NCBI GenBank assembly: GCA_017940605.1
Contig: JAGAYF010000060.1
Span: forward strand, 332-64,331
Source of the DNA: Bacteroidaceae bacterium
GTDB lineage: Bacteria; Bacteroidota; Bacteroidia; Bacteroidales; Bacteroidaceae
Direction of reading: 5' to 3'
DNA: 64,000 nucleotides
Part shown: positions 50 to 59,658 of the stretch, piece after piece
Numbering within the stretch: position 1 is the first letter of the stretch
How the letters are laid out: each line of letters opens with the position of its first letter
The notes under the pieces: generated by a model
Database searches by the model: none
What the model saw: the letters and a program-made list of their open reading frames with translations, nothing else
What the model was told of the DNA's origin: nothing
Program-made: the position numbers and the translations under genes

Positions 50-152
50 CTGTGCGCCGTAAAAGATTTTCCCCAAGGCGTGGGAATTGTATGAATAAGG
101 CGTAAAAGGTGCTCAGACGGGGCGTGAAAAAACCTCTATGAGGCATAAAAAA
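50..152 (+). repeat. Dispersed intergenic repeat (GGCGTAAAA-box element), copy 1
   Basis: GCGCCGTAAAAGATTTTCCCCAAGGCGTGGG core-like segment, followed by AAGGCGTAAAAGG, GGGGCGTGAAAAAA and GAGGCATAAAAAA boxes. Aligns by eye with nine other copies in this window. Confidence 0.7.
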
Positions 153-526
153 TCAAGAATGCTGCCTGGTTGCCTTTCTGTGTCTTGTCAGACGGTTTTT
201 CAGATGTCTGTCCAGTGTCCTGCGACTGCCGGTGCGGTCCTGCGTGCTTTCTGTGCTGTGCGGGGAATGTGAGCGGGCCTGTCACCAACTTGGTGTGTAG
301 CGTGAAAATCGTGGTTTCTTGATAAGTTGCGGGGATGCCCATATTGTTATATATTATATATGTCGCGCGCGAAAGAATTATTTACAAATGTAAAAAAATG
401 AAATTTATCAGAAAAAAAAGCCAGGTTTTTGTTGTCGGGAAAAAAACTTGTTGTAATTTTACAGCGCATTGTCGCATGTCGGCATCATAAAATCGTAAAA
501 TAAAAAACATAAAAATAAATAATTGT

Positions 527-4409: not shown

Positions 4410-4500
4410 TGATTCTCCAAGGCGTGAAAACCTCGTGAACAAGGCGTAATAGCAGGGCCAATGCGGCCTGAAAAATTTCTGATAAGGCGCAAAAAATGCC
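4410..4500 (+). repeat. Dispersed intergenic repeat, copy 2
   Basis: CCAAGGCGTGAAAACC, GAACAAGGCGTAATAG, ATGCGGCCTGAAAAATTTCTGATAAGGCGCAAAAAATG. Confidence 0.8.
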
Positions 4501-4766
4501 CTTGCCTGCGGCAGCGTCTGTCTGTCGTGCCCCAGAGCGTGTGTTCAGTTGCATTCGCCAGCCTCTCCACGCCTGCAGGCGGCTGCATCTTTGGTCCTTG
4601 TCACGTGGCAAGCCGGTACGCACTTCCCGTGTGCCTGGCCTCCATGTCACTGCACAGGTCCGCGTGGCCTGTTTTCTGTGGGCAGAAAGTGCGGAATTGC
4701 AGATTTATGATTAACTTTGCATTCCCTTACGGCTTGCCTTGGATGCAGGTCGTGTATGCTTGAAAT

Positions 4767-11136: not shown

Positions 11137-11568
11137 ATGATTTACTACAAAATTCAGAAGAAAGCCAGTCCCAAGGACGACTCCAAGAAGTACTACCTGC
11201 AGATGAGCAAGGCCAAGCACGTGAGCCTGGAGGAGATTGTCAAGCGCGTGGAAAAGCGTTCCACCGTAAGTCGCGGCGACGTGATGAACGTCCTCGATGC
11301 CCTGCAGTTCGAGGTCATTGAGTGCCTCAGGAACGGCGACACCGTGCGCCTGGGCGACCTGGGCACGTTCTACACCACCATGTCCAGCCAGGGCGTGGCC
11401 ACCGAGGAGGAGGCCAAGAAGAAGAACGTCAACCTCATCAAGAAGCTCAACGTGCGCTACCTGCGCAGCAAGGCCATGTCCGAGGAGGTCACCCCGCAGA
11501 AGATCACCATCCAGCGGCAGCCCGAGCCCAAGGAGACAACGACCGACGCCACAGGCAGCGGTGACTGA
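11137..11568 (+). CDS. HU-family DNA-binding protein (Bacteroidetes-type, with C-terminal extension)
   Basis: 143 aa. HU/IHF-like core EEIVKRVEKRSTVSRGDVMNVLDALQFEVIECLRNGDTVRLGDLGTFY, then a Lys-rich arm and an acidic/Thr-rich tail. Confidence 0.85.
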   Translation: MIYYKIQKKASPKDDSKKYYLQMSKAKHVSLEEIVKRVEKRSTVSRGDVMNVLDALQFEVIECLRNGDTVRLGDLGTFYTTMSSQGVATEEEAKKKNVNLIKKLNVRYLRSKAMSEEVTPQKITIQRQPEPKETTTDATGSGD

Positions 11569-11597
11569 CATGCACCCCTCGGCACGGGGGCGTGAGA

Positions 11598-11861
11598 CTT
11601 ACAGGTGGGTGGCCTCCATGCCCACCCGTAAGTCTCCCCGATACTTACCCGTAAGTGTCCTCCATACCTACCTGTGGTTCTCACGCCGGTCACCCGTAAG
11701 TGTCGCGCCGGTCACCCGTAGGTGTCATGACACCCTGCCGTAAGTCTCATCACACTTACCCGTAAGTGTCCATGAGACTCACCCGTAGGTATCCCCGACA
11801 CTTACCCGTAGGTATGCAGGACATTCACCTGTAAGTCTCACGACACCCTCCCCAGGGTCTC
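11598..11861. repeat. Phased tandem array of 12 palindromic units of 22-23 bp (iteron/operator-like)
   Basis: Core 16-mers start at 11598, 11621, 11644, 11667, 11689, 11711, 11733, 11755, 11778, 11801, 11824 and 11846. Consensus is CT(T/C)ACCCGTA(A/G)GT(G/C)TC. With the linker, each unit approximates the dyad GACACTTAC-CC-GTAAGTGTC. Confidence 0.9.
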
Positions 11862-18037: not shown

Positions 18038-19327
18038 ATGCAGCGCAGATTATGGATATTGATGGCCTTGGCGTGTTTGTTGTCAGTGCAACAGATGGCC
18101 GCCAAGGGAAAAATTTCGGGTGTCAAGCCGGCAGCCTATACGATTGTGTACTCCCAGAAAGCCGAACCCGAGGAGGGACTGCTCATGGCGCAGGAGTTGC
18201 AGCGCAAGCTGGCCTCCGCCACGCAGGTCACCCTGCCCCTTGTGGGCGACAGCCTGTTCAGGGGCGGGAAAGCCCTATACATTACGCATTCGCCCCAGAT
18301 GCAGGTCTTTGATTACAGCATTCGTTGCACCAAGGGACGGTTCACGATTGACGGAGGCGGCTGCTGGGCCATGGCCAAGGCCGTGGATATCCTGGCAGGG
18401 AAGCTTAAGGAGGGCGATGTTCCCGCCAACTTCGTCCTGAAGGGCAGTGTGTACGACCAGGAGCTGTTTCCGCGCCCCGAAGGCGTGAACCTGCGCATCC
18501 TGGACGACAATGTGTGGGGCTACCGCAAGGAGAAGATTCCCGATGCGTGGAAAGGGCTGCCCGCCGACCCCCGCGACGATGCGCGTGTGCCGCAGTTCTA
18601 CCAGCTTTTCCGCGCCTATATGCCCGATGTCATTACGTTGCAGGAATACAACGACCACATGGATGCCCGGCTCTTCCCTAAGCTGGAGAAACTGGGCTAC
18701 GAGCATACCTACAAGCCCAAGGAAAATTGGAACAACACACCCGTCATCTACAACAAGAACGCGGTCGATCTCATCAAGGCCGACTATCTGCTGTATCCGC
18801 GCATGGGCTTGGCCAATACCTTTACCAAGTCCTACACCGTGGCCATCTTCAGGCACAAAGCCACGGGCCGCGTGTTCGGCGTGGCCAGTACGCACCTGTG
18901 GTGGATGGGCGACGCGCGCCAAGTGGGCAGCAGTCAGTTGCGGGCCGCCCAGGTGCGTCTCCTGATGTGCCAGATAGAATTGTTGCAAAAGGAATACAAC
19001 TGTCCGTTCTTCGTATGTGGCGACATGAACTGCGAAGAGCGCAGCATTCCCATCCAACAATTCCTGCAAGGCGGCTATGAACCCTGCTACAAGCTGGCTA
19101 CGCTCTACGCTGACAACAATAACGGCCACCATATCTGCGGACCGGACGACGGATACGCGCGCCAGAGCCGCCGCATCAGCCCCACGCGCGACGGAGCCAT
19201 AGACCACTGCTTCCTTTACAACGGACAGGGGCGCGTTGAGGTGAAGGTGTTCGACTGCATCCAGCCTTACTTTACCGTACCCCTGACGGACCATTACCCC
19301 AACTTGGTCGATGCCGTCCTGAAGTAG
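18038..19327 (+). CDS. Secreted endonuclease/exonuclease/phosphatase (EEP) family protein, paralogue 1
   Basis: Signal peptide. EEP blocks LRILDDNVWG, VITLQEYN, ASTHLWW, FVCGDMNC, IDHCF, LTDHYPN. Confidence 0.85.
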   Translation: MQRRLWILMALACLLSVQQMAAKGKISGVKPAAYTIVYSQKAEPEEGLLMAQELQRKLASATQVTLPLVGDSLFRGGKALYITHSPQMQVFDYSIRCTKGRFTIDGGGCWAMAKAVDILAGKLKEGDVPANFVLKGSVYDQELFPRPEGVNLRILDDNVWGYRKEKIPDAWKGLPADPRDDARVPQFYQLFRAYMPDVITLQEYNDHMDARLFPKLEKLGYEHTYKPKENWNNTPVIYNKNAVDLIKADYLLYPRMGLANTFTKSYTVAIFRHKATGRVFGVASTHLWWMGDARQVGSSQLRAAQVRLLMCQIELLQKEYNCPFFVCGDMNCEERSIPIQQFLQGGYEPCYKLATLYADNNNGHHICGPDDGYARQSRRISPTRDGAIDHCFLYNGQGRVEVKVFDCIQPYFTVPLTDHYPNLVDAVLK

Positions 19328-19361: not shown

Positions 19362-20693
19362 ATGAAAAGGATATTTTTTTGTTTGTCGCTGTTTGCTGCT
19401 TTCCTCACCTGTGCAACGGCGCAGGAGAAGGGGGAAACGGTGGTTTCGCTGACAACATTGACGGGCCTTGCCGAGCGATTGGCGGCGGGATGGCCGCTTG
19501 CGGGCTACACCATCAGGTACAAATCGTCGGCCGAGGCCGAGGAGGGCCTGGACAGGGCGCAGGCGATGCAGGCCAACGTGAAAGCGAAAATCGGCCCCGT
19601 GTTGCCGATTACGGTCATGGGGGCATCGAATGGCTTGTTTCTTGATTTCACGCACAGCGACAACCGCGGTGTATTTGAATACGAGGTAACCACGTCGGAA
19701 GGCAGGGTGACGATCGACGGTGGCGGGTGTTGGGCCATGCAGTACGCGGCCGATGCCGTCGTTTCCTACATTTCCAAGCGGGACTTGCCGTTAAAATACT
19801 ACCTGAAGGGGACTGTGGAGGGCAAGACCCTGTTCCCGCGCCCCGAAGGCGTGAACCTGCGCATCCTGGACGACAATATCTGGAGTAATTCCAGCGAAAA
19901 GGTGCCCGATGCATGGAAAGAGCTCAACGCCGACCCGCGCGACGATGTGCGCGCCCCCCAATTTGCCCAGCTGGTGCGGGCTTACATGCCTGATGTCTTT
20001 ACAATGCAGGAGTATGACAGGCACATGGATGCACGGCTCATGTCACGTCTGCAGTCCTTGGGGTTTGTGTCGGCCACTCCCTCGCAAACACAATGGAACT
20101 ACACGCCCATCCTGTACCGCACGGTCGCATTGGAATTGCTGAAGGCCGATTACCTGCTGTACACCCCCGAGACGTGGAGCAACGGCAATACAAAATCCTT
20201 TACCTCGGCTGTGTTCAAGCACAAGGCGACGGGCAAGATTTTTGCCGTCATTACAACGCACCTGTGGTGGAAGTCTGAATCGGCCCAGGCAGGAAGTACG
20301 GCGGCGCGTGCGGCCCAGGTGAAAAGCCTCATGGAGGCTGCCGAGGCCATCAAGGCGGAATACGACTGCCCCATCTTCGTGACGGGCGACATGAACTGCT
20401 ATGAGAGCACCGAACCCATGCAATTGTTTCTCCAGGCTGGCTACCAGCCGTGCTACAAGATTGCTACGGTGTACGGCAACAACGACAACGGCCACCATGT
20501 GTGCAGTTCCGAAGGCTTCTCGCGCAAATCCAACCGCCCCAGCCCCTACCGCGAACTGGGTGCCATAGACCACTGTCTTTTGTATAACGGAAAGGATGCC
20601 GTCGAGGTGAAAGTGTTCGACTGCATCCAGGCATACTTCACCATCAAGCTCACAGACCACTATCCCAACCTGATAGACGCCGAGCTCAAGTAG
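19362..20693 (+). CDS. Secreted endonuclease/exonuclease/phosphatase (EEP) family protein, paralogue 2
   Basis: Same architecture and blocks as the upstream gene (LRILDDNIWS, FTMQEYD, ITTHLWW, FVTGDMNC, IDHCL, LTDHYPN). Shares a 42-nt identical DNA run with paralogue 1. Confidence 0.85.
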   Translation: MKRIFFCLSLFAAFLTCATAQEKGETVVSLTTLTGLAERLAAGWPLAGYTIRYKSSAEAEEGLDRAQAMQANVKAKIGPVLPITVMGASNGLFLDFTHSDNRGVFEYEVTTSEGRVTIDGGGCWAMQYAADAVVSYISKRDLPLKYYLKGTVEGKTLFPRPEGVNLRILDDNIWSNSSEKVPDAWKELNADPRDDVRAPQFAQLVRAYMPDVFTMQEYDRHMDARLMSRLQSLGFVSATPSQTQWNYTPILYRTVALELLKADYLLYTPETWSNGNTKSFTSAVFKHKATGKIFAVITTHLWWKSESAQAGSTAARAAQVKSLMEAAEAIKAEYDCPIFVTGDMNCYESTEPMQLFLQAGYQPCYKIATVYGNNDNGHHVCSSEGFSRKSNRPSPYRELGAIDHCLLYNGKDAVEVKVFDCIQAYFTIKLTDHYPNLIDAELK

Positions 20694-21365: not shown

Positions 21366-21546
21366 GTGAAAAAATCTTGTCTTGCGTGAGGAAACCCGTG
21401 GGCTGCCCTGCGGAATGCTGCCGATGGGGCGGTCCTGCAAAATTACGGCTTTTCCACGACACGGCCCTATGATGCCTCCGTTTTTTCGGCACGACGGTGG
21501 GCGGGAGGCCGACCTGAGAACGGCGGCATCAACCCAACGGAAAACC

Positions 21547-21629
21547 ACAGGGCGCAAAAGGCCGGCCGATGCGGCCTGAAAAAAATCCTGCAAGGCGTAA
21601 AGGACGGACCAACGGGGCGTAAAAAAATC
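21547..21629 (+). repeat. Dispersed intergenic repeat, copy 3
   Basis: ACAGGGCGCAAAAGG, GATGCGGCCTGAAAAAAATCCTGCAAGGCGTAAAGG, AACGGGGCGTAAAAAAATC. Confidence 0.85.
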
Positions 21630-30982: not shown

Positions 30983-31044
30983 AACGTTGCTTTTTCATGC
31001 CCACGGGGGCATGTCGCGTCTCCTGCATGGGGAGGCGGAGGCCC

Positions 31045-31147
31045 GTTGCGGCCTGACGGCAGGGCTGCGGGGCGCAAGAGGTGGACGGATGCGGCCTGAA
31101 AAATTTCATGCAAGGCGTAAGACATCCGCCAATGAGGCGTAAGAATC
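31045..31147 (+). repeat. Dispersed intergenic repeat, copy 4
   Basis: GTTGCGGCCTGACGG partial core, GGGGCGCAAGAGG, GATGCGGCCTGAAAAATTTCATGCAAGGCGTAAGAC, AATGAGGCGTAAGAATC. Confidence 0.85.
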
Positions 31148-31244
31148 CGCGCCCGAGCCGTGTGCGTCACCCTATGCCGCAAATGGCGGGTTTCCTGATG
31201 GAAGTGCAGGTTGCAATCAGGCACTTTCCCTGCATCATGCCAAC

Positions 31245-31279
31245 AAGGGCGGATGTCCATGGAGTTGGCATCCGCCCTT
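31245..31279. terminator. 11-bp stem hairpin between convergent genes
   Basis: AAGGGCGGATG-13 nt loop-CATCCGCCCTT. No T-run on either strand, so a terminator function is uncertain. Confidence 0.35.
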
Positions 31280-31309
31280 GTGGCTGTGTAGGTTGGCAGG
31301 ACTCTGCGC

Positions 31310-34860: not shown

Positions 34861-34957
34861 TGTCAGGGGAAAAGCAAGTCGGGCCGAGCGTGGCCAAGGA
34901 GGAAAAACATGGGGTGGCTTCCAGCATGCAACGATGATGGACATGCTTCTGCCTGCC

Positions 34958-35059
34958 TTGGGCAAAAGTGAACCGAACAGGGCGTAAAAGGTGGGCGTAT
35001 GCGGCCTGAAAGATTTTGTGCAAGGCGTAAAAAACGAGCGAACAAGGCATAAGAAATAG
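34958..35059 (+). repeat. Dispersed intergenic repeat, copy 5
   Basis: GAACAGGGCGTAAAAGG, TATGCGGCCTGAAAGATTTTGTGCAAGGCGTAAAAAAC, GAACAAGGCATAAGAAATAG. Confidence 0.85.
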
Positions 35060-35219: not shown

Positions 35220-35270
35220 CTGCCGCCCACTTCCTGTGCGGAAAGTGGGCGGCAGCATGCTTGCTTTTTT
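35220..35270 (+). terminator. Perfect 13-bp stem hairpin followed by a distal T-run
   Basis: CTGCCGCCCACTT-10 nt-AAGTGGGCGGCAG, then catgcttgcTTTTTT. Lies 360 nt after the hemW stop and 15 nt after a minus-strand mini-ORF. Confidence 0.45.
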
Positions 35271-35386
35271 CAGATGGCGGCCTCGGGGGTCGGTCTTATG
35301 GCGGCCTGCATCTTGCGCGCCATCATTTTCAGGTAAGCAATGGTTTCTTCACGGGGTGAAAGTTCTGGTAGGGTAAAATCGTTCAT
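35270..35386 (-). CDS. Candidate 38-aa small protein downstream of the ECF sigma factor gene
   Basis: ATG..TGA ORF translated by hand as MNDFTLPELSPREETIAYLKMMARKMQAAIRPTPEAAI. It is 63 nt downstream of the sigma gene on the same strand. No motif recognised and it is below the track's size cut-off. Confidence 0.25.
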   Translation of the reverse strand: MNDFTLPELSPREETIAYLKMMARKMQAAIRPTPEAAI

Positions 35387-35449
35387 AGGCATCCACATTA
35401 TCAATATACATATTCATAACGTGGCCTTGCCGTTTTTATTTTACGGAAA

Positions 35450-41538: not shown

Positions 41539-41564
41539 GCGACTGAGTAGGACAAATACAATTG

Positions 41565-41604
41565 TGCGGTTGCATACACAGGGATGTGTTGCAACCGCAT
41601 TTTC
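41565..41604 (+). terminator. Rho-independent terminator
   Basis: TGCGGTTGCA-15 nt-TGCAACCGCA followed by TTTTCTT. Confidence 0.7.
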
Positions 41605-41649: not shown

Positions 41650-41738
41650 GCTTGATTTTTTACGCCTTGTTCACTGGATTTTTACGCCCTGCATGAAATT
41701 TTTCAGGCCGCGTTGGCCCACTGTTTGCGCCTTGTTCT
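41650..41738 (-). repeat. Dispersed intergenic repeat, copy 6 (the only inverted copy)
   Basis: The reverse complement reads GAACAAGGCGCAAACAG..AACGCGGCCTGAAAAATTTCATGCAGGGCGTAAAAATC..GAACAAGGCGTAAAAAATC. Confidence 0.85.
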
Positions 41739-41854
41739 GCCGCCGTCGGTGCTTTGTTGTCTGCCGTTTGCCCGTATGAGGGGTACTTTCTTCCCGTTCC
41801 CTGCACCAGTATGCCGCTGGCGGAAATGCCTGCCACGCTGCGGCGGGCTGCTGT

Positions 41855-42931: not shown

Positions 42932-42947
42932 GGTGCAAAGGTATGAA

Positions 42948-43015
42948 AATGGGGTGAAAAATTCCTGTATGCGGCTTGAAAATCGGTGAGGGGCAGAAAA
43001 TATCCTGCAAAACGG
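42948..43015 (+). repeat. Degenerate dispersed intergenic repeat, copy 7
   Basis: AATGGGGTGAAAAATTCC, TATGCGGCTTGAAAATCGG, GAGGGGCAGAAAATATCCTGCAAAACGG. Recognisable but diverged. Confidence 0.5.
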
Positions 43016-46091: not shown

Positions 46092-46826
46092 TCACTCCAG
46101 GCCTATGGAACCCACCACCAGGGCCAGTCCCGTTATCTCGTCCTTGGGAATGTCAATGGGCGGATAGTCCTTGTTGTCCGAAATGGCTTGTATGAAGTTT
46201 TCCTTGTCGCTCTTCAGCAGGCGTTTCACCAGCAATCCCTGTTCGCGCGTGGCTATGACGTGGCATTTATTCCACTGAATGAACTGGCTGTCCCTGATGA
46301 TGGAGCAGGCAATGATGTCGCCGGGCATGAGGTGGGGCATCATGCTGACGCCCGACACTTCTATCATGAAGTCGACGTGACAGTACCGAAACTTGGGGAC
46401 TACGTAGAATTCCTTGACGTCCGATTCGGATATCATGAAGTTGTTGTTGCCAAATCCTGCGGCCACCGTCTGCAGCACCAGGGGAATGGGCTTGACGTTC
46501 TGCGTGTTGGCAAAGGGGATGGCGTATCCGCTGTATTTGTGGGTGCGTCTCACCCCCTGCGGCACGGCATTGCGGTCGCTGTCGGGTGCTGTCTCGCCCG
46601 CATAATCGGGGTTGATCATCGGCCCGTCGCCCGTGAGCAGCCAACTGGTGTTTACCTCGGGTGCAAAGGCAAGAAATTTTGCGATGTTGTCCTCGCTGAT
46701 GCCGTTGTTCTGCGCCAGGATGCCGCGCGTCGTGCCCGAGCGCTTGTAGAACTCATAGGCGGTGATGCCTCGGTGGTCTAAGTAACGAAGGATGTTCTGC
46801 TTGACCAGTGATTTCTCTTGTATCAT
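46092..46826 (-). CDS. HTH + peptidase S24 (LexA/CI-like) repressor
   Basis: N-terminal HTH (ITAYEFYKRSGTTRGILAQ). C-terminal S24 block with Ser context EVSGVSMMPHLMPGDII and Lys context GLLVKRL. Confidence 0.85.
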   Translation of the reverse strand: MIQEKSLVKQNILRYLDHRGITAYEFYKRSGTTRGILAQNNGISEDNIAKFLAFAPEVNTSWLLTGDGPMINPDYAGETAPDSDRNAVPQGVRRTHKYSGYAIPFANTQNVKPIPLVLQTVAAGFGNNNFMISESDVKEFYVVPKFRYCHVDFMIEVSGVSMMPHLMPGDIIACSIIRDSQFIQWNKCHVIATREQGLLVKRLLKSDKENFIQAISDNKDYPPIDIPKDEITGLALVVGSIGLE

Positions 46827-46985: not shown

Positions 46986-47105
46986 CAGGGCAGGCAAAAA
47001 CTGGTTCAGGGAAAAGCGGTCAGGACAAGGCGTAAAAGGTAGTCGGATGCGGCCTGAAAAATTCCATGCAGGGCGTAAAAGTCCGGTGAACAAGGCGTAA
47101 AAAAC
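46986..47105 (+). repeat. Dispersed intergenic repeat, copy 8 (best-preserved copy)
   Basis: GGACAAGGCGTAAAAGG, GGATGCGGCCTGAAAAATTCCATGCAGGGCGTAAAAGTC, GAACAAGGCGTAAAAAAC. Confidence 0.9.
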
Positions 47106-47199
47106 ACGCGGCGGACCGTCCTGGTGGCCACGGCGTGAGAATGAGTTGTTTTTTCAGTTGTTTATGAAATCTGGGTTTTGGGCGTGCCATGGGAAAACC

Positions 47200-48153
47200 C
47201 TACCCCTTGTGCTCCGAGTAGATGACGCCTAGCAGGATGAGCAGCAGGCCGCCCAGGATGTACAGGTTCATTTCCTCGTCCATGAAGAGGACCGACACGA
47301 TGCTGGCCGACACGGGGTTGATGTACAGGTAGTAGGACGACTTGAGCGGCCCCAGTACCTCCAGCACCTTGTTCCACAGGATAAAGCACAAGTAGGAGGC
47401 AATTACCGTGAGGAACAGCAGGTTGCCCCACACGACGGGGCGTTGCAGGAGCGGCAGTTCGTCGGCGATGGGGCGGATGAACAGCACGGGCAGTATGGTG
47501 ACGAGCCCGTAGAAGAAGATTTTTCGCGTAATGAACACGACGTCGTAGTGTTTTCCCAGGGGTTTGATAATCAGGCTGTACAGCGCCCACAGAATGGCGG
47601 CCAGCAGGGCCAGCCCGTCGCCCAGGAAGGAGGCTTGCCATGTGAATTGGCCCTTGAAGATGAGGCAGCCTATGCCCACCAGCGCGATGGCCAGTCCCGT
47701 GACAAAGCGGTGGGTAATGGTGGCCCGCTCGATGCGGAGCATGTAGGCGAACAGTGTGGTCAGCAGCGGCGTGAAGGCAATGATGAACGACACGTCGGTG
47801 GTTTGTGCAAAGTGCAGGCCGTAGTTCTCGGCCACGAAGTAGAGCGAACCGCCCGTCAGGCCGGCCAGCATGAGCAGGGCCTCGTCGCGCAGGCTGTCGG
47901 CCCGCCACTTCTTGTGGCTGGTGAGGACCAGCAGGGCGTATGCGCCCAGGAAACGCAGGAAGAAAATGTTGGTTTCGCCCATGCCTTGCAGGATGAGCGT
48001 CTTGGTTGATGCGAAAGTCGCCCCCCATGTGGTCATGACCAGGAAGGCAATGGCGTGATACAGGATGAGTCGCCCGGAACTTCGTTCCGTAGATGGTGTG
48101 TGGCCGTTCACTGTGGTTTTTGGGTGCAAAGTTACGTGTTTTGCAGCATTCAT
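47200..48153 (-). CDS. EamA/DMT-family transporter
   Basis: 317 aa from the ATG at 48153, with about 10 TM segments in two EamA-like halves. Confidence 0.8.
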   Translation of the reverse strand: MNAAKHVTLHPKTTVNGHTPSTERSSGRLILYHAIAFLVMTTWGATFASTKTLILQGMGETNIFFLRFLGAYALLVLTSHKKWRADSLRDEALLMLAGLTGGSLYFVAENYGLHFAQTTDVSFIIAFTPLLTTLFAYMLRIERATITHRFVTGLAIALVGIGCLIFKGQFTWQASFLGDGLALLAAILWALYSLIIKPLGKHYDVVFITRKIFFYGLVTILPVLFIRPIADELPLLQRPVVWGNLLFLTVIASYLCFILWNKVLEVLGPLKSSYYLYINPVSASIVSVLFMDEEMNLYILGGLLLILLGVIYSEHKG

Positions 48154-55421: not shown

Positions 55422-55529
55422 GAACAGACCAATGCGGCCTGAAAGTGCTGCCGGCAAGGCGTGAAAGACGGTCGGATGCGGCTTGAAAAACTACACGCAA
55501 GGCGTAAAAATGCCCCGAACAAGGCGCAG
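55422..55529 (+). repeat. Dispersed intergenic repeat, copy 9 (core duplicated)
   Basis: AATGCGGCCTGAAAGTGCTGCCGGCAAGGCGTGAAAGAC, then GGATGCGGCTTGAAAAACTACACGCAAGGCGTAAAAATG, then GAACAAGGCGCAG. Confidence 0.85.
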
Positions 55530-55741
55530 TTGGCCGCACTTTCGCGTCTGCGTCCTTTTGGCAGGGGCTTCCAGGTCTGTGGAATGCTTGCAAATGCAGG
55601 TAAGGATGCGTGAAGATTCAGTCAGGGCTGAAAAGGAATATTTATGCACCGCCGAGGGGCAATTCAGCATGTTTCCCGTCTTTCCTTTTCGCCGTTTGCC
55701 TTTTCCCTGTCAGGCTGTTCGTTGCGGTTTACCGCTGGTGG

Positions 55742-55779
55742 AAAAAAAATAAAAACCTGCGGACTTCCGTCCACAGGTT
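55742..55779 (-). terminator. Rho-independent terminator of the small lipoprotein gene
   Basis: AACCTGCGGAC-ttcc-GTCCACAGGTT. The plus-strand A-run (AAAAAAAATAAAAA) gives a T-run after the hairpin on the minus strand. Confidence 0.7.
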
Positions 55780-55806
55780 TCAATCTCTCAAAGTCTTGTT
55801 AACTGA

Positions 55807-56013
55807 TTACTCAGCAGCAGGAGCTTCTTCTGCAGGAGCAGCTTCCTCAGCGGCAGCAGAGTCAGCTACGGTTGAATCAACAGCAGCAGAATCCTCAGCT
55901 ACGGCTTCGATAGAATCAGTGTCAGCAGCAGGAGCTTCCTGAGCTGCCTTCTGGCCGCAAGATGCAAAAGACATTGCAACAACGGCTGCGAAAACAAATA
56001 CTAACTTCTTCAT
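55807..56013 (-). CDS. Small acidic Ala/Glu/Asp-rich lipoprotein (68 aa)
   Basis: Signal peptide plus lipobox MSFASC, then a low-complexity acidic tail. It has its own terminator and AT-rich flanks. Confidence 0.7.
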   Translation of the reverse strand: MKKLVFVFAAVVAMSFASCGQKAAQEAPAADTDSIEAVAEDSAAVDSTVADSAAAEEAAPAEEAPAAE

Positions 56014-59363: not shown

Positions 59364-59428
59364 TTCCTTGCGGTTCGGACCGCAGCCGATGCCAGTCGGC
59401 ATGTCCCCACGAGGCTCATTCAGAAACG

Positions 59429-59531
59429 CTAAGGCGTGAACGAGCCAGAATGGGGCGTGAAAGCTGTGCCAATGCGGCCAGAAAAAATTCCTGCAAGGCG
59501 TAAAAACAAGGCGAACAAGGCGTAAAAAACC
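59429..59531 (+). repeat. Dispersed intergenic repeat, copy 10
   Basis: CTAAGGCGTGAACG, AATGGGGCGTGAAAGC, AATGCGGCCAGAAAAAATTCCTGCAAGGCGTAAAAAC, AAGGCGAACAAGGCGTAAAAAACC. Confidence 0.85.
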
Positions 59532-59658
59532 GTTTTGACAGGGTCAAACCGTGTCTGGATGCCTTGCGGAAGATGTTTGGGTGGAATGAGTTGTGCCACA
59601 GTGCATGGCCCAAGCGGAAAATGCGCTGCCCGAAAATCGTGAGGGCGGATGCCTTCGT

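Follow-up and report, generated by a model that had tools for sequence, protein, structure and literature searches.

A family of phased two-box intergenic repeats in an uncultured ruminant-gut Bacteroidaceae

What is the repeat of about 100 bp that lies between two genes at positions 46986-47105 of a contig from an uncultured ruminant-gut Bacteroidaceae, and why does it recur so often along the same DNA? The stretch that was analyzed (64,000 nt of JAGAYF010000060.1, referred to here as the window) lies inside a 76-kb contig, and an original prediction made from its letters had listed ten related loci. The sequence GGCGTAAAA was found 13 times in the window against 0.58 expected occurrences, the core ATGCGGCCTGAAAAATTTC was found eight times with up to three mismatches against 0.04 expected, and a 30-nt pattern spanning the second and third boxes of the array described below gave seven matches in the window and none in shuffled sequence. 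Repeat finding grouped these sequences into families of 6–8 members of 60–96 nt, in which an inverted copy at 41.6 kb paired with all of the others. Copies were then located with an nhmmer profile made from the aligned copies. This search recovered all ten predicted loci, nine of them as strong matches (E = 1e-17 to 1e-25) and the tenth, at 42944-43009, as a weak and decayed one (E = 0.09). The 12 kb of the contig outside the window contained three further copies, for a total of 13 per 76 kb or one per 5.8 kb, and the family occupies about 1.7% of the contig. On a gene map curated from Pfam matches and called genes every copy was intergenic, as had been proposed. The contig has been assembled independently from several ruminant-gut samples, and all of these assemblies are 99.9–100% identical to the window; the repeats are therefore not an assembly artifact, although the same near-identity makes strain-level polymorphism uninformative. 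Similarity between copies did not depend significantly on their genomic distance in a test for local spread (rho = -0.20, permutation p = 0.14). The repeat family is real, and it has not previously been described.

The architecture of the repeat was derived from the 11 core-bearing copies, aligned on anchors and without gaps, together with a weight matrix for the boxes. Each copy is a direct-repeat array of 4–6 boxes of about 22 bp, drawn from two types, A (AACAAGGCGTAAAA; consensus (G/T)(A/G)(C/A)A(A/G)GGCG(T/C)(A/G)AAA) and B (ATGCGGCCTGAAAAATTTC; consensus (A/G)ATGCGGCCTGAAAAATTTC), and all boxes of one copy have the same orientation. The core-bearing copies share a constant center, A1-B2-A3, to which a fourth box, A4, ending in a run of six A residues, is added in seven copies. 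Additional A or B boxes upstream in other copies result in the arrangements A-A-B-A, A-B-A-A, B-A-B-A-A, and A-A-B-A-A, such that the number of boxes varies between copies in the manner of a minisatellite. The arrays were not called as tandem repeats by Tandem Repeats Finder (TRF), save for a slippage patch in the copy designated c10. In each copy the boxes start 22, 21, and 22 bp apart, a mean period of 21.7 bp or about 2.06 helical turns, and the A1, B2, and A3 boxes are free of insertions and deletions in all 11 core-bearing copies, while the spacers between boxes vary in sequence. The flanking DNA contains about four times as many weak, degenerate boxes as expected, most of them in the same orientation, a figure that rests on small counts (8 versus about 2). 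Copies share a mean pairwise identity of only 69% over the core, but 21 of the 65 core columns never vary, as against about 5 expected under uniform decay at equal divergence (0 of 3000 simulations). Constraint falls on GGCG in the A boxes and on GCGGCC.GAAA in the B box. This concentration of invariance in the boxes, along with the lack of insertions and deletions, argues that it is the boxes, and the spacing between them, that count. The constraint could act on mobility, if the boxes are needed for copying, or on a function for the host.

We favor, with confidence that is about evenly balanced, an explanation in which the family is a lineage-specific, amplified, non-coding DNA repeat whose phased boxes are protein-binding sites and which has accumulated at transcription-unit ends, where the DNA is dispensable. 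The conservation of the boxes suggests that they would be recognition sites for a DNA-binding protein, either one that copies or mobilizes the element or a nucleoid-associated protein, and this protein would occupy them cooperatively, on a single face of a helix with moderate curvature. Cooperative binding along one face of a duplex requires a period of two helical turns, which has no obvious meaning for single-stranded RNA. Copies, presumably spread by a mobility mechanism, would build up where DNA is dispensable, usually 60–130 nt past a stop codon and ahead of a terminator or the next promoter, and would lengthen the gaps into which they insert. The strand bias described below may stem either from replication-linked spreading that depends on single-stranded DNA or from co-orientation with genes that are mostly on the plus strand, two causes that the data cannot separate.

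The restriction of the family to one lineage was examined with a two-box search pattern that matches seven of the ten copies in the window. In a collection holding one genome for each of 185,579 species (from which the source genome is evidently absent or masked), in JGI metagenomes, and in IMG/VR, GCGGCNNGAAANNNNNNNNGCARGGCGTAA gave only 12 single hits in unrelated taxa; as these were single and had no neighboring boxes, they are attributable to chance. No match was obtained when plasmids and phages were searched with the element by BLAST, and a literal search for the box sequences in the searchable literature returned primer coincidences only. When Rfam was searched over the window, no matches were obtained at the gathering threshold, and relaxing the threshold to E ≤ 5 yielded four chance matches, none of which was on a copy. 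The prediction that the element matches nothing described thus held in Rfam at both thresholds, in the literature motif search, and against plasmids and phages. The closest relatives that could be reached, ranked by the identity of their EF-G to that of this organism (92% for L033, 88% for L020 and L021, 84% for L034 and L035, 83% for L022 to L025, and 82% for L036 to L038), carried no copy at the syntenic loci.

Comparison with these relatives also bears on the predicted association of copies with additional GC-rich non-coding DNA, which was borne out. Gaps that hold a copy are 281–560 nt long, and those without a promoter have a GC content of 0.53–0.62 compared to 0.27–0.44 in most other gaps. 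From HemN to a small conserved ORF, the gap measures 117 nt in L034, 160 nt in L020, and 415 nt here; the terminator hairpin located about 45 nt past the HemN stop codon in L034 has its homolog 372 nt past the stop codon here. Of the additional DNA, roughly 300 nt in all, 92 nt precede the element as a head, 107 nt are the element itself, and 170 nt follow as a tail. The weak similarity that had been suggested to continue beyond the last box did not survive scrutiny: all-against-all BLAST, MAFFT alignment, and 8-mer enrichment relative to shuffled sequences detected no homology among heads or tails beyond base composition. An ORF of about 38 codons, downstream of a gene for an extracytoplasmic function (ECF) sigma factor (window approximately 35275-35391, minus strand), shares 75% nucleotide identity with a called ORF of 38–39 amino acids at the same place in L020 and L034.

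The genomic context of the copies was examined next. Five copies lie in convergent gaps, and all five are located 60–130 nt past the stop codon of a gene with which they are co-oriented. These are c4 (31043..31148, plus strand, B-A-B-A-A, nhmmer E = 1e-22), 60 nt past the stop of a plus-strand radical-SAM/SPASM gene identified by Pfam; c5 (34952..35058, plus strand, E = 3e-25), 92 nt past the HemN stop codon; c6 (41654..41756, minus strand, E = 3.5e-23), the sole inverted copy in the window, 99 nt past the stop of a minus-strand gene of the metallo-beta-lactamase fold, with which it shares its orientation; c9 (55431..55532, plus strand, B-A-B-A-A, E = 2.5e-22), 127 nt past the Omp85 stop codon in a gap that converges with a small minus-strand lipoprotein gene; and c10 (59427..59532, plus strand, A-A-B-A-(partial A)-A, E = 1e-22), 63 nt past the stop of a TP_methylase gene in a gap that converges with a DPBB_1 gene. 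The slippage patch noted above in c10 is a TRF repeat of 9–13 nt. Three of the five precede a strong, shared terminator hairpin (z = -3.4 to -6.8), namely c4, whose hairpin at 31250-31290 is shared with EF-G (-35 kcal/mol, z = -6.8), c5, whose hairpin at 35220-35256 is 170 nt further on, and c6, which precedes a bidirectional terminator with a hairpin at 41564-41599 (z = -5). The lipoprotein-like gene opposite c9 (55810-56013, minus strand) was not called by the gene callers whose output was considered; it encodes an acidic, Ala-rich product of about 67 amino acids (MKKLVFVFAAVVAMSFASCGQK...), has a clean intrinsic terminator at 55745-55785, and makes the long gap after Omp85 a convergent one.

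The remaining copies are in more varied surroundings. In tandem gaps between plus-strand genes, c1 (70..167, plus strand, E = 2e-17, weight matrix boxes at 94, 116, and 137) and c2 (4414..4513, plus strand, A-A-B-A, E = 2e-21, boxes at 4416, 4438, 4460, and 4481) are co-oriented with the genes. The former, 103 nt past the stop of a plus-strand glycosyltransferase gene, has A-type boxes only, its B box being replaced by GACGGGGCGTGAAAAA; the latter is 90 nt past the CvfB stop codon with the SufC promoter downstream. A third copy in such a gap, c13 (L029 222-140, minus strand, outside the window), is antisense and follows a terminator. Between minus-strand genes, c8 (the copy at 46986..47105) and c11 (L026 13034-13129, corresponding to window coordinate 64605, outside the window) are on the plus strand and hence antisense, at or beyond the terminator of the upstream gene. 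Divergent gaps hold c3 (21533..21629, plus strand, A-B-A-A, E = 4e-19 over 21533-21626) and the decayed c7 (42944..43009, plus strand), which retains an intact B box, ATGCGGCTTGAAAA, beside degenerate A boxes; both are flanked by promoters of the TAnnTTTG type. Lastly, c12 (L026 19349-19452, plus strand, outside the window) is a longer array with an extra B box at its end, 170 nt beyond a strong terminator. Directly after it, non-coding DNA of extreme C/T content (L026 19460-19955, approximately window 71030-71526) continues for more than 450 nt up to the end of the contig and contains a direct repeat of about 120 nt.

Two rules describe these orientations. The proposed plus orientation of nine of the ten window copies was confirmed, and on the 76-kb contig 11 of the 13 copies follow the plus strand (two-sided binomial p ~0.02). 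Alternatively, 8 of 11 copies point the same way as the gene ending upstream of them. The two rules fit about equally well, and they are confounded because about 31 of the 49 genes on the contig are on the plus strand and because the cumulative GC skew, which rises across the window, suggests that the plus strand is also the leading strand, as it probably is. The stronger statement of the original prediction, that orientation is independent of the flanking genes, went too far in light of the five convergent-gap copies, all of which are co-oriented with the gene ending 60–130 nt upstream.

A number of observations weigh against a repeat of protein-binding boxes as outlined above. All of the evidence comes from 13 copies on one contig. 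Neither terminal inverted repeats nor a recognizable target-site duplication was found, no transposase, RAYT (REP-associated tyrosine transposase), or recombinase gene was detected among the genes of the 76-kb contig, and no sufficiently close relative offered an empty site that would define the boundaries and the mobility of the element. In the HemN gap only about 107 of the roughly 300 additional nucleotides are recognizable element, the rest being non-homologous between copies. The repeat DNA is predicted to be moderately curved, with eight of nine copies in about the top 5% of 100-bp window segments under the Bolshoy-Trifonov wedge model and all nine above their own dinucleotide shuffles (summed z = 3.2), but this signal is modest and partly compositional (the shuffles average 17–20 degrees compared to a genome median of 12.8), and since both the implementation of the wedge model and its parameter set were our own, the curvature is indicative only. 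Finally, eight copies, among them all five in convergent gaps, are co-oriented with the gene ending upstream, which a role at the RNA level would also explain.

Such a role is an unlikely alternative. The element would be an unstructured, purine- and A-rich stretch within long 3' untranslated regions (3'UTRs), in which repeated AAGGCGUAAAA motifs bind an RNA-binding protein or a ribonuclease and so influence how stable the mRNA is or how its 3' end forms. These eight copies have the stop codon of their co-oriented gene 60–290 nt upstream, and the convergent-gap copies lie without exception on the side of the co-oriented gene, with c4, c5, and c6 ahead of their terminator hairpins; the gene preceding c6, which alone in the window is inverted, is itself on the minus strand. 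A lack of structure, as predicted for the RNA, would suit binding of a single strand. Consensus folding with RNAalifold gave -5.9 kcal/mol for the plus and -2.1 kcal/mol for the minus strand without conserved structure or compensatory pairs, and single copies folded no better than shuffled sequences (z = -1.2 to +2.0). However, c8, c11, and c13 are antisense to both flanking genes and sit at or beyond the terminator of the upstream gene, c3 and c7 lie between divergent promoters, and c12 is 170 nt beyond a strong terminator. The three antisense copies and the two in divergent gaps argue for a role at the DNA rather than the mRNA level. In addition, the strict spacing of about 21.7 nt is meaningful for double-helical DNA and not for single-stranded RNA, and the element is missing from the relatives examined. 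A small-RNA module, which had also been suggested, is not supported: there is no structure, the check for covariation revealed no compensatory pairs in the consensus fold of either strand, and no Bacteroidetes TAnnTTTG or sigma-54 promoter was seen by eye inside the element, the real TAnnTTTG boxes being outside the copies; moreover, three copies are antisense to both neighbors.

We consider it improbable that the copies are a strand-polarized chromosome signal in the manner of KOPS (FtsK orienting polar sequences), Chi, or Ter, but built as a larger protein-binding array whose leading-strand orientation is kept by selection. The bias of 11 of 13 copies to the plus strand would fit such a signal, as would the rising cumulative GC skew, from which the plus strand is probably the leading one, and the two copies that are on the plus strand despite lying between minus-strand genes. 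Nevertheless, the bias comes from one contig whose genes, too, are mostly plus-strand (about 31 of 49), which confounds it with gene direction, and two copies break the rule. No copy was found in relatives with 82–92% EF-G identity, whereas greater age and a wider distribution would be expected of a core maintenance signal, and known polar motifs measure 5–23 bp rather than 100 bp.

A related and more speculative possibility, to which we attach little weight, is that the arrays are a non-selfish, lineage-specific system for organizing the chromosome, consisting of hundreds of helically phased, orientation-biased platforms at transcription-unit ends that are read by a dedicated protein. If this were true, the arrays would mark replichore polarity or insulate neighboring transcription units, and they would be a large-format, Bacteroidales-specific counterpart of KOPS-type polar motifs or of nucleoid organization by proteins bound to bacterial interspersed mosaic elements (BIMEs).

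The suggestion of a classical MITE (miniature inverted-repeat transposable element), mobilized in trans by a DDE transposase, was not upheld and is very improbable. The repeat is small, non-coding, intergenic, multi-copy, and confined to one lineage, as a MITE might be. Still, a scan for inverted repeats in five copies and their flanks revealed no terminal pair common to the copies, whose ragged ends are made of direct repeats of the same box, and the center is the most conserved part, which is the reverse of a MITE. Target-site duplications were not evident, given undefined boundaries and intergenic DNA too diverged in the relatives. As a separate matter, Mu-type transposase sites were considered as the identity of the boxes and rejected, as Mu-like prophages in related Bacteroidales carry unrelated 12-nt GTAACCCCTAA boxes at their ends.

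That the element encodes a basic 17-amino acid peptide (MRPEKFHARRK...NKA*) is hardly credible: the ATG-initiated ORF has an identical length of 17 codons in c3, c4, c5, c8, and c10, but this equality is automatic from the fixed box spacing, the ATG is lost in 3 of the 11 core-bearing copies (ACG or GCG in c6, c12, and c13), the frame runs on to differing lengths in c2, c9, and c11, and the substitutions in the core are mostly non-synonymous with no period of three among variable columns. All three frames of the plus strand run into the TAA of successive boxes, and these stops, the lost start codons, and the absence of a codon-position pattern bear out the initial view that the element is non-coding. 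On the minus strand the repeat does give rise to spurious ORF calls; a profile built from its three open frames there found nothing at E ≤ 10 in a collection of 5.8 billion proteins.

The copy in question, c8 (nhmmer 47001-47105, E = 1e-24), begins with two degenerate boxes (46986-47016) followed by A-B-A-A on the plus strand. Its boxes are A1 at 47024..47039 (GACAAGGCGTAAAAGG, 22.2 bits), B2 at 47046..47065 (GATGCGGCCTGAAAAATTCC), A3 at 47067..47082 (TGCAGGGCGTAAAAGT, 21.1 bits), and A4 at 47089..47104 (AACAAGGCGTAAAAAA, 26.5 bits), with scores from the position weight matrix. The copy is antisense to both of its neighbors, an EamA gene (minus strand, stop at 47200) and a LexA-like gene (minus strand, start at 46826). 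It adjoins a GC-rich hairpin at 47105..47137 (minus strand, -16.4 kcal/mol) that is not part of the repeat family and, with z = -1.1, is not exceptional alone. Read on the minus strand, the A run of box A4 is a U6 tract directly after this hairpin. The hairpin and the T6 run of box A4 are plausible as an intrinsic terminator for the EamA gene, in which case this copy may have been co-opted as part of a terminator (47089-47137, minus strand). The GAACAAG of A boxes (e.g. window 47088-47094) can be read as overlapping GAAC and CAAG, the target tetranucleotides of rolling-circle elements of the IS91 family; the resemblance lacks support and is probably a coincidence, and no IS91-like gene was seen on the contig.

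The neighboring LexA/S24-like gene (46092-46826, minus strand) encodes a protein 100% identical to MBP3775176.1, which comes from a Bacteroidaceae metagenome-assembled genome of the ruminant-gut metagenomes SRR12529170 and SRR12529154. Its closest homologs (in L017 and L019) are at the repressor end of Mu-like prophages of other Bacteroidales. Here it is in a housekeeping context, and in L033, the relative with 92% EF-G identity, it is directly after EF-G. The gene may be a domesticated or relocated phage repressor. Because its homologs sit in Mu-like prophages, in unrelated contexts, it is unhelpful for finding orthologous loci. Elsewhere in the window, 18038-19327 and 19362-20693 are tandem paralogous genes of the Exo_endo_phos family that are 74–77% identical over long stretches.

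Interspersed repeats have hardly been described in gut and rumen Bacteroidales, for which the BrickBuilt element of Porphyromonas gingivalis is the main example. The present family is unusual in that it consists of phased direct repeats without palindromes or inverted repeats and combines a very high density with strict spacing and an orientation bias. If the boxes bind a protein, they offer a handle on nucleoid organization or on an unrecognized mobility mechanism in an uncultured lineage. The family also shows that 3' intergenic regions can triple in length within one lineage, and it could serve as a strain marker. Were the repeat nothing more than decaying selfish DNA, it would be of value chiefly for annotation.

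How, then, does the family compare with known systems? Taken broadly, it is an interspersed mosaic element like BIME, BOX, or BrickBuilt, without being a member of any of these. In enterobacteria and pseudomonads, repetitive extragenic palindromic (REP) sequences and BIMEs are binding platforms for gyrase, integration host factor (IHF), Pol I, and RAYT (PMC2817692). The repeat resembles them in being high-copy and extragenic (13 on 76 kb, all intergenic), lineage-specific, composed of few motif types in fixed order, and typically located past the 3' ends of genes. REP sequences, imperfect palindromes of 20–40 nt, fold into stem-loops, and their orientation alternates within BIMEs. The boxes described here are, in contrast, direct repeats with no stem-loop potential and no alternation, and no RAYT gene was seen on the contig. 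The original prediction of a REP/BIME-like protein-binding element therefore stands in part. Membership fails because there is neither a palindrome nor a stem-loop, while the way of working is the best-fitting one, and by analogy the repeat is most like REP/BIME as a mosaic extragenic platform to which proteins would bind.

Within Bacteroidales the nearest described element is BrickBuilt, which consists of 1 to about 23 identical, spacer-less units of 23 nt bounded by a conserved leader and a conserved tail that have small terminal inverted repeats and is present in 19 copies per genome (PMC4596501). Both are dispersed, strictly intergenic, and species-restricted elements of Bacteroidales with direct repeats of about 22–23 nt in variable number. 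Unlike BrickBuilt, the present repeat has two box types in fixed order with a period of 21–22 nt and lacks a leader, a tail, and inverted repeats, and its density is about ten-fold higher. The two were set apart by the published description of BrickBuilt, whose consensus is shown as a figure (PMC4596501). The pattern of the second and third boxes had no match in P. gingivalis, which is present among the Genome Taxonomy Database (GTDB) species scanned. A true tandem minisatellite in the window (11595-11846), with about 11 units of 22–23 nt (roughly ACTTACCCGTAAGTGTC plus 5–6 variable nt) and an internal palindrome in each unit, is nearer to BrickBuilt than the phased-box repeat is. Its neighbors are an HU-like gene (11138-11569, plus strand, PF18291/PF00216) on one side and a Big_2/Por_Secre_tail gene on the other, and one copy of BrickBuilt likewise adjoins a PF00216 gene.

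The BOX elements of Streptococcus pneumoniae are built of boxA, boxB in variable number, and boxC, modules of 45–59 nt with predicted stable secondary structures. As in BOX, the repeat described here is a modular, intergenic, interspersed element whose module number varies between copies, but its boxes are short and helically phased, and BOX has no such phasing. Mycobacterial interspersed repetitive units (MIRUs) are 46–101-bp units inside operons, with small ORFs that overlap the stop and start codons of their neighbors. The two families are alike as dispersed, minisatellite-like, intergenic direct repeats oriented with adjacent genes, and differ in that the present one has neither operon-internal units of 46–101 bp nor small ORFs overlapping the neighboring genes. 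Iterons and the ends of Tn7 (bound by TnsB) and Mu (bound by MuA) comprise 3–7 direct sites of about 17–22 bp, spaced about 22 bp apart, that place proteins on one face of the DNA, and the direct boxes at 22-21-22 bp described here are spaced in the same way. Iterons mark one replication origin beside a rep gene, and transposon ends are inverted pairs that bracket an element; no rep or transposase gene was found among the genes of the 76-kb contig. The boxes differ from both in forming solitary arrays, with no partner end, at at least 13 loci among housekeeping genes.

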